Source: Escherichia coli (GTDB lineage: Bacteria; Pseudomonadota; Gammaproteobacteria; Enterobacterales; Enterobacteriaceae). Taken from it: DNA of 64,000 bases. Where the stretch lies: the NCBI RefSeq assembly GCF_048403405.1, contig NZ_CP183129.1; one strand, written 5' to 3'. This document shows positions 43,230 to 53,732 of the stretch, piece after piece. Under the pieces are notes generated by a model that ran no database searches, had not been told where the DNA came from, and worked only from the letters and a program-made list of their open reading frames with translations. Position 1 is the first letter of the stretch; every line of letters begins with the position of its first letter. The translations under genes and the position numbers were made by a program.

Positions 43230-43381
43230 GCGGGTTATGCGGGTTACCGGGTTATCTTAGCGTGCTAACTATTTTTTGTTCTTTAGTATCAATATGTTGC
43301 AAAATGCACTGTTCATTATTCAAGCATCGCATAACCCGCAAAACATCCCAAATAACCCGCAAACGCCCCAAAATAACCCGC
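43230..43381. repeat. Iteron cluster 1: three direct GCGGGTTAY 9-mers (43230-43255) plus three inverted copies spaced 21 bp apart (43331-43381)
   Basis: Read directly from the sequence; the same 9-mer recurs at 53610-53732. Confidence 0.85.
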
Positions 43382-44050
43382 AAACACATTGCTGAAAGCA
43401 GGGGTGGATAGTTCCACTGGTGCCACAGAACGGCTGAATACGGTAACTGTTGCTGGTGGTCTGTCCTGTTGTCGTTCCAGTCTCATCAAATTGAGAGGCA
43501 AGACAAAGTGCATTTTTGCACTATAGCCAAAGCCTCATAAAACAGAGTTACCCCCACAGGCTGGCAAACCATTACCCAACGCAATTAAGTGCGTCAGAAT
43601 CGATTACAGCGCGTTCCTGTGGCACGTTGTTGCCGTTCTCAGCAGTGAAAGGAGAGCGTGAAAAGCGCATATCTATTACTGTTGAGGGGTGTAGCGGCAT
43701 ATATCGCGAATATCCACGCCCTTAATCCCGATACCGTCACGGCGCATTGAGATCCACCAGAAGATTAAGATAGTTTTTACCTGAAATTATCCAAATAATT
43801 GTTTTAACTGATTAATTTTTCGAATATCTATTGTTAGGGAATAAATCATCAGATACACCATAAAACGACATCTTTCAGGGTGTAGAAGATGCAAAGCCGG
43901 TACTGAAGAAAAGACAAAGAATATGAATGGCTGGCCACACGATGGAAGGATTGTCCATTGAAGGATCAATCCTAATGGTATAAGTATTAATAAAACCGTG
44001 CAGGGGGCTTTTTTATCTGCGGATTCCCGCCCGGGCGGCGGTGGCATTCG

Positions 44051-44076
44051 TTAAAAACAAGGCCGCGAAAGCGGCC
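44051..44076 (-). terminator. Rho-independent terminator ending the cargo operon
   Basis: On the minus strand: hairpin ggccgc-tttc-gcggcc followed by a U-run (plus-strand A5 at 44053-44057). Confidence 0.75.
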
Positions 44077-44090
44077 TGTGACATGTCACG

Positions 44091-44651
44091 CTACATTGAT
44101 ATATGATTCATAAAGTAGCTTAGAGATTTACTTCCCAGAAAAGAAATTTCTTTTCCTGGATATGTCGCAATAATTGAGCATGACTTATCCCCGTTAGAGG
44201 TAACAAATCCTGAATAACCTACTTGTTCTTTACCATTTTGTTGCTTGGCTAAAAAGTAGAGGTAGCTTATCTTTTTGCCCTCTGGGTAAAACTCTGCCAA
44301 ACCAGTATCGGTGATTGAATATTTTATTCTCCCGCCTTGAGTAACGTTTTCCATCTCAAGTTTAGCTATGTCTTTTCTGTTGTATTCAGCATTGATTTTC
44401 CTTTCGAAATCAATGTTGTTTTCAAATGAGTAGGAAGCAACAGTCTGAATAGATGGGAACACGTTTATCTGGATGCCTCCACAGTCGGCACAGGTATAAA
44501 GGTATGAATCAGATGGAATCCCCATAAAAGAAAACTGAGTTACCTTAAATTTATCGCTATCTCCAAAGTATTGAAGTTCGCATTTAACATTTTGCCCTGC
44601 AAAAGAAAATGCAGACATCAATATTGAAACAAAAAATATAATTGCCTTCAT
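44091..44651 (-). CDS. Secreted/periplasmic protein of unknown function (Sec signal peptide, five Cys)
   Basis: 186 aa, N-terminal MKAIIFFVSILMSAFSFA; low GC; start 2 nt after the stop of the upstream 850-aa gene. Confidence 0.7.
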   Translation of the reverse strand: MKAIIFFVSILMSAFSFAGQNVKCELQYFGDSDKFKVTQFSFMGIPSDSYLYTCADCGGIQINVFPSIQTVASYSFENNIDFERKINAEYNRKDIAKLEMENVTQGGRIKYSITDTGLAEFYPEGKKISYLYFLAKQQNGKEQVGYSGFVTSNGDKSCSIIATYPGKEISFLGSKSLSYFMNHISM

Positions 44652-44653
44652 TA

Positions 44654-52192: not shown

Positions 52193-52609
52193 TTAGCCTC
52201 CGACTCTTCCGTAGCGCTGTTCTGGTGGATTCACATAGCCCCTTTCTTGCAGGTATTCGCGAATATCAGACATCAGGAGACGGTTAACCGTGCTCTTGTC
52301 TTTTCTCCGGTAAAGGCGTCTGGTGATCATGAAGTAGTTAGCAATGACCTCCGGTATATCCCTGACGCTGATACATGCTGTATGCTGGTCAATAGCTTCA
52401 ATCATCTCTTCACGAGTTACAAAAGTCTGGCGTAAACGAGTGATCACACCATGTACATCTGAACGATCATTTATACGCTTATTTTGGCGCTTCGCGCTCT
52501 CGACTGTGACACTGACAATAATGTCAACTCTTTGTTTTTCCGCCATTTCATCCACAATGTGATCACCTGCACGGCGACCATGTGCGTGATCATTTCTTAC
52601 TATTTCCAT
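52193..52609 (-). CDS. Hypothetical protein (138 aa)
   Basis: ORF overlapping the FinO-like gene end by 20 nt; the true start may be the internal MAEKQ. Confidence 0.45.
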
Positions 52610-53087
52610 TCATCTCCTCCAGTAGTTTTCCTGCGTGCGTCTGTTGTAGTGGTGTTACCTCGCCGCACGGCTGGCCTTTCAGGTCGTAACGCGCGCCACC
52701 AGCTACCAGGGCGCGGTAATAGCGCGGAGTCTGCACATAACGCGCCAGCGTTGCGCGTAGTGTTCCCTGTCCGAGTGAAATACCTCTCGCGGCAATATCC
52801 TGTATCAGGTCGTCAAATATCCCCACCTTAAGCGGCTTAGGTGATTCCGGGCTGAATAATTCAGGCCATAGCTCAATAAGACGGTTAACGCGTCTGCGGT
52901 TTTTACGCTGCTGTTTGGTCATACGCCGCCGCGGTGTTGCTCCTGTGAGCTTCTGCTGTGTGTTCTGGTTATCTGGCATCACTTTATGCGCCGATGTGGT
53001 TTTATTCTGCTGCTGCGCCGCCTGTGCTGTTTTCTGCGGCGTGCCGTAAATGCCCTTCGGTTTTCTGTTTATGGTCAGCTTTGTCAT
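52590..53087 (-). CDS. ProQ/FinO-domain RNA-binding protein
   Basis: [14 protein letters not shown]...[35 protein letters not shown] aligns by eye with E. coli ProQ (PLKIGIFQDLVDRV...[35 protein letters not shown]). Confidence 0.75.
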
Positions 53088-53123
53088 GCCTTCCCCTGTA
53101 ATTACTCTGTTCGCTGTTGTGAA

Positions 53124-53546
53124 TTAAAACGGTATCCCGTCCCCGTACGGATCGTCGTTACCCGCCTGTTGTTTTGCCCTGTTCAGTGCGTCAGTAGCCT
53201 GCCCTTGCTGGCCTTTTTTGCCGCCCGGTCGCGCCGTTCTCGCACTGATTACGCTGTCTGCGATAACCTGCCAGCCCTGCCGCGTTTCGCCGTTCTGGCC
53301 TGTCCACTGGCTTACCTGCATGTTACCCGCCACGCTCACCAGTTCGCCTTTGTGGTGTTTTGCCAGTGCGTCGGCCTGTCTGCCAAACGCCAGGACGGAT
53401 AACCACATCGTCGCCGTTCCGTCATCTGCCTGATTGCATGGAAGGGGGACCGCCATACTCGCCATCGCCATTTGTGTGCCCTTGCTGGTGGTCTTTAACT
53501 GCGGGTCAGCCACCAGCCGCCCGTAAGCTGATATTTGCGCCGTCAT
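53124..53546 (-). CDS. ssb: Single-stranded DNA-binding protein (SSB-like)
   Basis: OB-fold-like core (YGRLVADPQL ... WLSVLAFGRQA) and the acidic C-terminal tail DDPYGDGIPF, which resembles the SSB DDDIPF tip. Confidence 0.7.
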   Translation of the reverse strand: MTAQISAYGRLVADPQLKTTSKGTQMAMASMAVPLPCNQADDGTATMWLSVLAFGRQADALAKHHKGELVSVAGNMQVSQWTGQNGETRQGWQVIADSVISARTARPGGKKGQQGQATDALNRAKQQAGNDDPYGDGIPF

Positions 53547-53609
53547 GCTGTTTGTTCTCCGGTTTTAACGTGATAGTTACGCTTGTTTACACTCTTACAG
53601 TGAAATTTT

Positions 53610-53732
53610 GCGGGTTACAATCGCACATTTGCGGGTTATAACTGCCGTTTTGCGGGTTACGTGCGGGTTATTGATTTCCTTTTTAATCATGCAGTTAATT
53701 AACTTATGCACAGGATAACCCGCATAACCCGC
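53610..53732. repeat. Iteron cluster 2: four direct GCGGGTTAY copies (53610-53671) plus two tandem inverted copies (53715-53732)
   Basis: Read directly; lies between the primase/helicase stop and the ssb start. Confidence 0.85.

Follow-up and report, generated by a model that had tools for sequence, protein, structure and literature searches.

In the 64,000-nucleotide stretch of Escherichia coli DNA analysed here (the window), an 18.8-kb phage-inducible chromosomal island (PICI) occupies the dinD-yicC site, which is one of the listed PICI sites (supplement of PMC6092414). The island is framed by att-like direct repeats, ATTATGTACACCCTTATGTACACG on the left (42824-42847) and its partner on the right (61637-61660), which are 92% identical and 18,813 bp apart. 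Homology to dinD-yicC islands of other E. coli begins at 42757, and a tyrosine integrase gene occupies the right end (60311-61579, minus strand). Together with the integrase and the att repeats, an AlpA-like/small HTH regulator, unidirectional genes, PerC, a length within 10-20 kb and cos homology place the element among the PICIs. Its cargo (44091-51523, minus strand) comprises four genes for podophage-like (epsilon15/phiV10) virion or internal proteins of 186, 850, 565 and 873 amino acids, the last with an SLT domain, with full-length PHROG matches and nucleotide patches 93-95% identical to phiV10-like phages. No RNA family was returned by an Rfam scan of the island and no defence family by PADLOC for ten of its cargo and accessory proteins, and a PDB sequence search with the 138-aa protein, considered as an Rpp-like packaging redirector, gave no match.

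Exact copies of the 9-mer GCGGGTTAY number 12 in the window, against 0.88 ± 0.92 expected (maximum 3 in 100 shuffles), and 11 of these lie in the two clusters that a preliminary description of this DNA had located, the twelfth being a stray at 34840. The enrichment which that description presupposed is borne out in the chromosomal flanks of six loci, where a single GCGGGTTAY is found in 129.6 kb of E. coli chromosome; copies with one mismatch are no more frequent within the island than beyond it. The order of direct followed by inverted copies, also as first described, holds in both clusters. Cluster 1 begins with a tight plus-strand array (43230-43255; GCGGGTTAT GCGGGTTAC C(C)GGGTTAT), with copies at 43230 and 43239 and an 8/9 copy at 43247, in 9-bp steps (Tandem Repeats Finder period 9, 3.1 copies). 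It is followed by a 75-bp spacer (43256-43330) of 67% A+T, against 50% for the island, presumed to be a melting region, and by a phased minus-strand array (43331-43384) of three TTTGCGGGTTAT copies starting at 43331, 43352 and 43373, with the 21-bp spacing noted before (period 21, 2.7 copies). Cluster 2 has the same parts in the reverse arrangement: a phased plus-strand array (53607-53671) of four copies at 53610, 53631, 53652 and 53663, spaced 21, 21 and 11 bp, then a 43-bp spacer (53672-53714) of 70% A+T and a tight minus-strand array of two abutting copies (53715-53732; starts at 53715 and 53724). Tandem Repeats Finder independently recovered the 9-bp and 21-bp periods at all four arrays, and the phased copies have a longer motif, TTTGCGGGTTAY, in common. 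Since the plus strand of cluster 1 aligns with the minus strand of cluster 2, the two clusters are inverted copies of one architecture, in which opposed iteron sets (3+3 and 4+2) surround an A+T-rich spacer as in PICI origins. No promoter-like site was detected at the iterons when the surroundings of both clusters were scanned, and a terminator scan of the same regions found ordinary terminators only, after cargo genes.

The clusters enclose the cargo, the SSB gene (53124-53546, minus strand), ProQ/FinO and a PerC pseudogene. The title of the preliminary description has them bracket the replication genes as well; the primase-helicase gene, however, lies outside, to the right of cluster 2, whose last repeat is 24 bp from the stop codon of that gene, so that the position given there for cluster 2, directly downstream of the primase/helicase, is correct. 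Could the clusters be the terminal inverted repeats of a mobile or invertible cassette? They are indeed mutually inverted, and the region between them carries cargo that differs between islands, with another gene set in locus L002 and capsid/terminase modules in cf-PICI relatives. However, complementarity between the arms reaches only 75% over 53 nt, the stretch they enclose has no gene for a transposase or invertase, and the intervening genes are on the rep strand in the loci mapped by tblastn or annotated. SSB, ProQ and PerC beside cluster 2 are moreover conserved and only the distal cargo varies, like the accessory regions of other PICIs. On the grounds of weak complementarity, missing recombinase genes and same-strand genes both the transposon-end and the invertible-segment versions were rejected, and we regard a cassette of either kind as most improbable.

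On its other side cluster 1 has a neighbour that the preliminary description did not mention. At a distance of 33 bp is a cos-like site of HK97/phiP27 type ('cos-end', 43117-43197), 86% identical over 82 nt to the annotated phiP27 cos region, with a putative cohesive-end core near 43148-43157; in the phiP27 record the order is HNH, cos, TerS, TerL, and homology suggests that the island has a cos of this type. The intervening nucleotides form a conserved leader, GAATGCAATTTTTCG(TA)nCAAAACAGT (43198-43229), which is kept in 17 distinct distal-arm sequences (21 loci), its (TA)n tract varying by about five TA units among the 11 distinct sequences aligned. A genome-contig search with the distal-arm leader gave one match, in E. 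albertii, so at the level of exact matches the module is apparently confined to Escherichia. Some 20 phage-size contigs share the cos core, and in these phiP27-like sequence comes next (in phiP27 itself the HNH gene), with no iterons. In phiP27 the cos lies about 60 bp from the HNH gene, whereas in satellites of the window type an origin arm follows the cos core instead. Helper-like cos sites are a known feature of PICIs, some of which have two of them, and the island in the window likewise has a cos-like site. We also considered cluster 1 as a satellite cosB, bound by TerS or Rpp. This was set aside as the main reading, since the repeats of cluster 1 are those of the origin and vary in step with the Rep C-terminus in two classes of specificity, and since no cos-adjacent arm was found in EcCIEDL933.

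The protein most likely to read these repeats is encoded next to cluster 2. Pri-Rep (53757-55883, minus strand) is a 708-aa primase/DUF927 helicase-initiator (Pfam DUF927, E=3.6e-46; PHROG DNA primase, E=2e-174), residues 214-603 of which match 8TCH, a solved staphylococcal 'pathogenicity island protein' (E=1.7e-14), and also the Cch helicase 5DGK. SaPI Rep recognises its iterons with a C-terminal winged-helix domain, and a hexamer is presumed to be loaded on either side of the A+T region (PMC9371898). The corresponding specificity region of Pri-Rep would be residues ~600-708 (encoded at ~53760-54086): the C-terminal ~110 residues change with iteron type in the eight Reps compared, being 83-95% identical among GCGGGTTAY elements and only 33-42% where the iterons are of another type. 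Residues 200-560, the helicase core, show ~93-99% identity in TGTCCCA-type Reps; in L004, whose Rep is of the TGAGGCAAC type, the figure is 72-86%. The C-terminal 148 residues, modelled with AlphaFold on an alignment of 17 sequences, reached a pLDDT of 52, too low to confirm a winged helix, with which the predicted helix-helix-hairpin order is compatible. With its match to 8TCH and a C-terminus that tracks iteron type, Pri-Rep appears to be a SaPI-type Rep. In both arms the iteron columns of the alignment are better conserved than the columns between them, at 93.8% against 82.3% in the distal arm (p=0.01, 17 distinct sequences) and 95.3% against 86.6% in the proximal arm (p=0.0003, 27 distinct sequences).

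In PICIs the origin consists of two opposed iteron sets which flank an A+T-rich region immediately 3' of pri-rep, and in EcCICFT073 the pri-rep-ori segment drives plasmid maintenance (PMC6092414). Judged by this rule, cluster 2 sits in the canonical place and appears to be the proximal arm of the origin, whereas cluster 1, with the same build, is 10.3 kb away. The cf-PICI EcCIEDL933 indicates where the second arm comes from: its Rep is 82% identical to that of the window and has the same C-terminus, and both arms lie side by side after pri-rep. Cluster 1 aligns to the left arm of this contiguous origin with 82% identity over 155 nt, homologous spacer included, and the contiguous origins of L003 and L045 have a comparable leader ahead of their left arm. 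Cluster 1 is thus, by sequence orthology, the second arm displaced from a normally contiguous two-armed origin. SaPI and PICI origins (SaPI, EcCICFT073, EcCIEDL933) share with the island in the window opposed iterons, an A+T-rich core and a fused primase-helicase initiator, and at such two-set sites the Rep hexamers of SaPIs load themselves and melt the DNA. Unlike in known PICI origins, the second arm in the window lies 10.3 kb off, across SSB, ProQ, PerC and 7.4 kb of cargo, and abuts cos; in the PICI literature searched we found no description of split origin arms or of iterons beside cos.

The preliminary description had instead compared the two clusters to the origin and the crr enhancer of phage P4. 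P4 alpha, like the predicted Pri-Rep, is a fusion of primase, helicase and C-terminal DNA-binding parts, in that order. As in the window, P4 has two separate blocks of one short repeat in both orientations, one of them directly 3' of the primase-helicase gene, and its record places crr directly 3' of alpha, in agreement with the preliminary description, and ori ~4.7 kb away. The difference in repeat sequence noted there is also confirmed, the P4 record having TGTTCACC and close variants. Beyond this resemblance in the placing of the two blocks, one next to the 3' end of the primase-helicase gene and one kilobases from it, little favours true homology to P4 ori/crr, in which cluster 2 would correspond to crr and cluster 1 to ori. 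P4 alpha gave no BLASTP match to the window Rep at E<=0.01, although it is 49% identical over 464 residues (E=1e-160) to the Rep of the related contig L016, which does use the P4 octamer. The window has an initiator of another family by sequence, another repeat in place of the TGTTCACC octamer, and mirror-image arms, each with its own A+T-rich spacer, where crr is made of two 120-bp direct repeats. Finally, the contiguous form in EcCIEDL933 shows the two blocks to be halves of one origin. We therefore consider such homology scarcely credible. The analogy is apt in the sense of 'works like', but P4 membership fails: the iterons are of initiator type and cluster 2 belongs to an origin, as had been supposed, and yet the element is a PICI and not a P4-like satellite. 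The crr-like role suggested there for cluster 2 falls away, since in PICIs the rep-proximal cluster is the origin itself (PMC6092414), and the distal cluster is no better a crr, being the displaced arm of an EcCIEDL933-type origin that now abuts cos.

The split layout is not a peculiarity of this island. At >=80% query coverage, 159 of 5,426 complete E. coli genomes carry the junction of cos and distal arm, with 78-100% identity. A cognate distal arm was found at every evaluable locus with a single proximal arm (the window, L001, L002, L048, L010, L011, L013, L020, L027, L042, L052, L079, L046 and L082), the arms being 2.2-11.0 kb apart; evaluable here means that the sequence reaches the expected position of the distal arm, and many IMG/VR contigs with a single proximal arm, which end earlier, were left out. 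In two of these loci, E. albertii L046 and E. coli L082, the same split is seen with iterons of another kind, CTTGTCCCA/TGGGACAAG, which occupy the cos-adjacent arm as well as the single proximal one. Conversely, no cos-adjacent arm was found in range at the loci with contiguous arms (L045 and nine IMG/VR contigs). This complementary distribution is not absolute, as L003 has three arms, and because the loci are related, as few as two or three independent events may underlie the association.

Does the cos-adjacent arm do anything for the island, then? Cluster 2 could be the sole functional origin and cluster 1 a passenger, a former arm that was linked to the cos end by rearrangement, would be carried along by recombination and has no function now. 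Evidence of several kinds points this way. The GCGGGTTAY distal arm is intact beside replicons of other specificity, namely L009/L016, which have TGTTCACC iterons and a P4-alpha-like Rep, and L049, with CTCCCCAC iterons and a RepA-type helicase, so the arm moves together with the cos/packaging end and can be retained where no cognate Rep is present. It is decayed in L018 and cleanly deleted in L050. The whole distal unit, beyond the iterons, is 82-94% conserved, which fits recent common descent, and the proximal arm by itself satisfies the minimal-origin rule of SaPIs (PMC9371898); as it is a complete origin by that measure, the distal arm may be dispensable. Against the passenger stand the lack of any evaluable single-proximal-arm locus without its cognate distal arm, the joint change of both arms in the second iteron type, the higher conservation of iteron than of spacer columns, and the confinement of loss or decay to arms beside a non-cognate Rep (2 of 4 such lineages against 0 of ~14 cognate loci). 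On balance we think it unlikely that cluster 1 is functionless.

It is slightly less probable still, in our opinion, that cluster 1, though bound by Rep, starts no replication and serves as a control or coupling element, be it by Rep titration or handcuffing that limits copy number (as in P1 incA or R6K), as a looping enhancer like P4 crr, or by marking cos for the coupling of replication and packaging. In favour of this, the same iterons occur far from the origin and beside cos only in satellites, the phage-size contigs with the cos core being iteron-free; P4 provides a precedent for a distant iteron block required in cis; and the 21-bp phasing places the sites on one face of the helix. However, cluster 1 has retained every part of an origin, among them an A+T-rich spacer that would be needless in a pure titration site, no promoter-like site was found there, and EcCIEDL933, in which no cos-adjacent arm was found, is reportedly packaged and transferred (bioRxiv 10.1101/2022.09.08.507074). 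The plasmid precedents bear on the comparison in their own way, in that P1 incA and the R6K gamma iterons, which act on the alpha and beta origins by looping, are distant initiator-binding arrays. Such arrays could pair with the main origin through protein bridges, and in this they are like the arms in the window. Unlike these arms, the plasmid arrays have no A+T-rich core between opposed repeats and serve copy control of a stable plasmid. The island in the window would have a helper-induced replication burst, in contrast to the stably maintained P1 and R6K plasmids.

We consider the most plausible explanation to be that both clusters are predicted Pri-Rep binding arrays and together make up a split two-armed PICI origin, and we hold this with reasonable though far from complete confidence. 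The two arms have the same architecture, the distal one is orthologous to the second arm of a contiguous origin, both match the C-terminal type of the Rep, and the split layout recurs in other islands; from this we infer that Rep binds and melts the arms and that the distal arm may contribute to replication. Upon helper induction Pri-Rep would be made and its C-terminal domain would read GCGGGTTAY at both arms. Each arm would then be opened and primed, either as one of two separate start sites or cooperatively, via Rep-Rep contacts that loop the DNA in the manner of P4 alpha with ori and crr, and the replicated DNA would be cut at the adjacent cos by the HK97/phiP27-type helper terminase. The distance to be bridged is 10.3 kb through the cargo or, once the island is excised as an 18.8-kb circle, ~8.3 kb in the opposite direction. 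A more specific and more tentative idea, which we would not expect to hold, is that the origin is truly bipartite, with Rep at the cos-adjacent and pri-rep-adjacent arms acting jointly over 8-10 kb by looping. The arm at cos would in that case link the start of replication to the packaging site, for instance by opening or marking the satellite cos so that the helper terminase prefers it. If this holds, a long-range origin architecture would have evolved independently for a second time in phage satellites, and replication would be connected to packaging in a way not recognised before.

Gene transfer in enterobacteria is widely mediated by PICIs and cf-PICIs, whose origin has hitherto been described as a single compact unit right after pri-rep. 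In the PICI family studied here the full origin consists of two arms that mirror each other; in a lineage found in ~3% of complete E. coli genomes these are kilobases apart with one of them at cos, and both change together with the Rep C-terminal domain when the specificity changes. Should the distal arm be inactive, it would still be useful for tracing how replication modules and packaging modules recombine. Should it be active, satellite replicons would tolerate or exploit a long-range origin organisation, with a bearing on the placement of self-loading helicases and on the incompatibility and cross-talk of co-resident satellites, and the minimal replicon/packaging cassette of PICI-based delivery vectors would need both arms.

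The iterons lie in an E. coli island of ~18.8 kb between dinD and yicC, with copies of a 24-bp repeat at its two ends (42824 and 61637). All of its genes are on the minus strand, running from the integrase, a 216-aa protein and a small HTH regulator through Rha, AntA/B, Bro/Icd and DUF4222 proteins to the 708-aa primase/DUF927 helicase (Rep, 53757-55883), with cluster 2 (53610-53732) directly after it; SSB, ProQ/FinO, a 138-aa protein, a PerC pseudogene and four podophage virion-like genes follow, and then cluster 1 (43230-43381). Gram-negative phage-inducible chromosomal islands (PICIs), whose sites include yicC-dinD (supplement of PMC6092414), share this order of genes. 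Left of 42757 the window is a 100% match to the ldcA/cvrA chromosomal region, where other island-bearing strains have dinD; this breakpoint falls in dinD-yicC intergenic DNA, 67 bp outside the att repeat, and points to a rearranged chromosome or to a join made during assembly. The PerC-family regulator gene (51961-52186) is frameshifted in the window lineage, and three near-identical islands have it annotated as a pseudogene. The 138-aa protein (52193-52609, minus strand) combines an N-terminal PHROG terminase-family match (E=1.5e-10) with a C-terminal anti-repressor-family match, which would be compatible with a packaging-redirecting (Rpp-like) factor; searching its sequence against the PDB returned nothing.

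The preliminary description had reported one 9-mer, GCGGGTTAY, in two clusters, and this is upheld: it occurs 12 times in the window (0.88 expected), 11 of them within the clusters, whereas the 129.6 kb of chromosomal E. coli DNA around six related loci contain a single copy. Cluster 1 opens with a tight plus-strand array in which two exact copies and an 8/9 copy abut; after 75 bp of spacer (67% A+T) comes a phased minus-strand array of three copies at exact 21-bp intervals. Cluster 2 has a phased plus-strand array of four copies (spacing 21, 21 and 11 bp), a 43-bp spacer of 70% A+T and a tight minus-strand array of two abutting copies. Tandem Repeats Finder recovered the 9-bp and 21-bp periods independently. 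Since forward cluster 1 aligns with backward cluster 2, the clusters are mirror images of one design. ORFs at 43316-43513 and 42772-43260, and at 5710-6414 of the related locus L002, span the cos site and iteron arrays; one is a hypothetical protein in the RefSeq annotation, none has a family match, and they are probably not genes.

The PICI origin is defined as an A+T-rich region between two iteron sets immediately 3' of pri-rep, and EcCICFT073 pri-rep-ori maintains a plasmid (PMC6092414). SaPI Reps are self-loading helicases that read iterons with a C-terminal winged-helix domain, with one Rep hexamer presumably loading to either side of the A+T-rich stretch (PMC9371898). Cluster 2 is a canonical PICI origin, with nothing unusual for this known kind, and is very probably the origin here; the helicase core of the island's Rep matches 8TCH, a solved 'pathogenicity island protein' (E=1.7e-14). 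The preliminary description had suggested, by analogy, that the clusters may be an origin/enhancer pair like the ori/crr of phage P4. In the P4 record, crr is a pair of 120-bp direct repeats that carry type-1 octamers and immediately follow the 3' end of alpha, with ori ~4.7 kb away; this agrees with the crr placement and the differing octamer given in that description. However, protein family, repeat sequence and block architecture rule out membership of the clusters in the P4 system, and what stands of the analogy is a functional resemblance only, two distant blocks of initiator sites.

What is cluster 1 then? In relatives with the same Rep family, two mirror-image units are adjacent to each other after pri-rep, with TGAGGCAAC iterons in L004, GGGACAAC/GGGACGAC in L003 and GCGGGTTAY itself in the prototypical cf-PICI EcCIEDL933 (L045). 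Cluster 1 is 82% identical to the left EcCIEDL933 unit over 155 nt, spacer and (TA)n leader included, and the right unit is the counterpart of cluster 2. Therefore the island's arms have been parted by SSB, ProQ, PerC and cargo, and cluster 1 is the second arm of cluster 2's origin, moved away from the first. The cargo (44091-51523, minus strand) comprises four genes, for an 873-aa SLT protein and products of 565, 850 and 186 aa, with full-length matches to epsilon15/phiV10-type podophage virion/internal proteins; at that location L002 has another set, of three large genes, and L050 has one made up of a lytic transglycosylase, DUF2213 and NUDIX. PADLOC gave no hit in the cargo. These podophage ejection-protein homologues are found in a satellite that has a siphophage-type (HK97/phiP27) cos, yet no capsid or terminase genes.

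The displaced arm adjoins cos. The stretch at 43117-43197 shares 86% identity with the surroundings of the annotated phiP27 cos-site, which in that phage lies in the order HNH, cos, TerS, TerL. In phage-size contigs, phiP27-like sequence without iterons comes after the same cos core (in phiP27, this is the HNH gene), while in satellite-size contigs the core leads through GAATGCAATTTTTCG(TA)nCAAAAC into an iteron unit. The (TA)n tract (43213-43222) recurs at this place in 17 distinct distal-arm sequences, and its length varies among loci by ~five TA units. Between the att repeat and cos, 71 nt (42915-42985) are 83% identical to part of phage P1 rlfB, with a homologue in L003. The window island has the terminal cos only and lacks terminase and capsid genes. 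The cf-PICI relatives L009-L013, L016, L027, L043, L049 and L045 have an extra internal cos-like site, CA[CT]AAAAATTTGAGG[AG]GG[CT]G..., between HNH and TerS, on top of the terminal cos beside the origin arm except in EcCIEDL933, which has the internal one only; the pair recalls the two cos sites reported for EcCICFT073.

Several observations indicate that both arms belong to Rep. Over its C-terminal ~110 residues, identity is 83-95% within the GCGGGTTAY elements and 33-42% in elements with other iterons. The helicase core (residues 200-560) keeps ~93-99% identity in TGTCCCA-type Reps; for L004, whose Rep is of the TGAGGCAAC type, the figure is 72-86%. A second specificity is split in the same way: E. 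albertii L046 and E. coli L082 have CTTGTCCCA/TGGGACAAG in the cos-adjacent and the single proximal arm, and a TGGGACAGG variant is common to the tight arrays of both arms. All single-proximal-arm loci with enough sequence to judge have a cognate distal arm 2.2-11.0 kb off, and contiguous-arm loci have no cos-adjacent distal arm in range. In both arms iteron columns are more conserved than intervening columns. Among 5,426 complete E. coli genomes, the cos-plus-arm junction is found in 159 and the contiguous origin in 141, the records sampled from the top of the latter list being largely O157:H7 strains. That cluster 1 is instead a Rep-bound control or coupling site we regard as improbable.

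Other observations speak against a necessary role of the distal arm, which also stands intact next to replicons with different iterons. An intact GCGGGTTAY arm lies beside cos in the IMG/VR cf-PICI contigs L009 and L016, whose 604-aa Rep shares 49% identity with P4 alpha (E=1e-160) and is followed by nine P4 type-1 TGTTCACC iterons (~8850-9090, in the orientation used). It is also intact in L049 (E. coli 2014C-3075, 13096-28284), with a RepA-type helicase and CTCCCCAC iterons; this cf-PICI is a helper-embedded satellite, sitting inside an HK97-like prophage at the large-terminase gene, into which it is inserted, and its terminal cos has diverged. In L018 the arm has decayed, and in L050 it is deleted, exactly from the (TA)n tract. 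The arm thus moves together with the cos end and can be carried along as a passenger. Moreover, L003 has three arms, the proximal arm by itself conforms to the SaPI minimal-origin rule (PMC9371898), and independent events are few because the loci are related. That cluster 1 is itself a passenger relic we consider unlikely.

An origin that is split in this way, one arm lying at cos, is a variant for which we found no description in the PICI papers searched. Cluster 1 is expected, with good confidence, to bind the same Rep as cluster 2, and we lean slightly towards it also contributing to replication.
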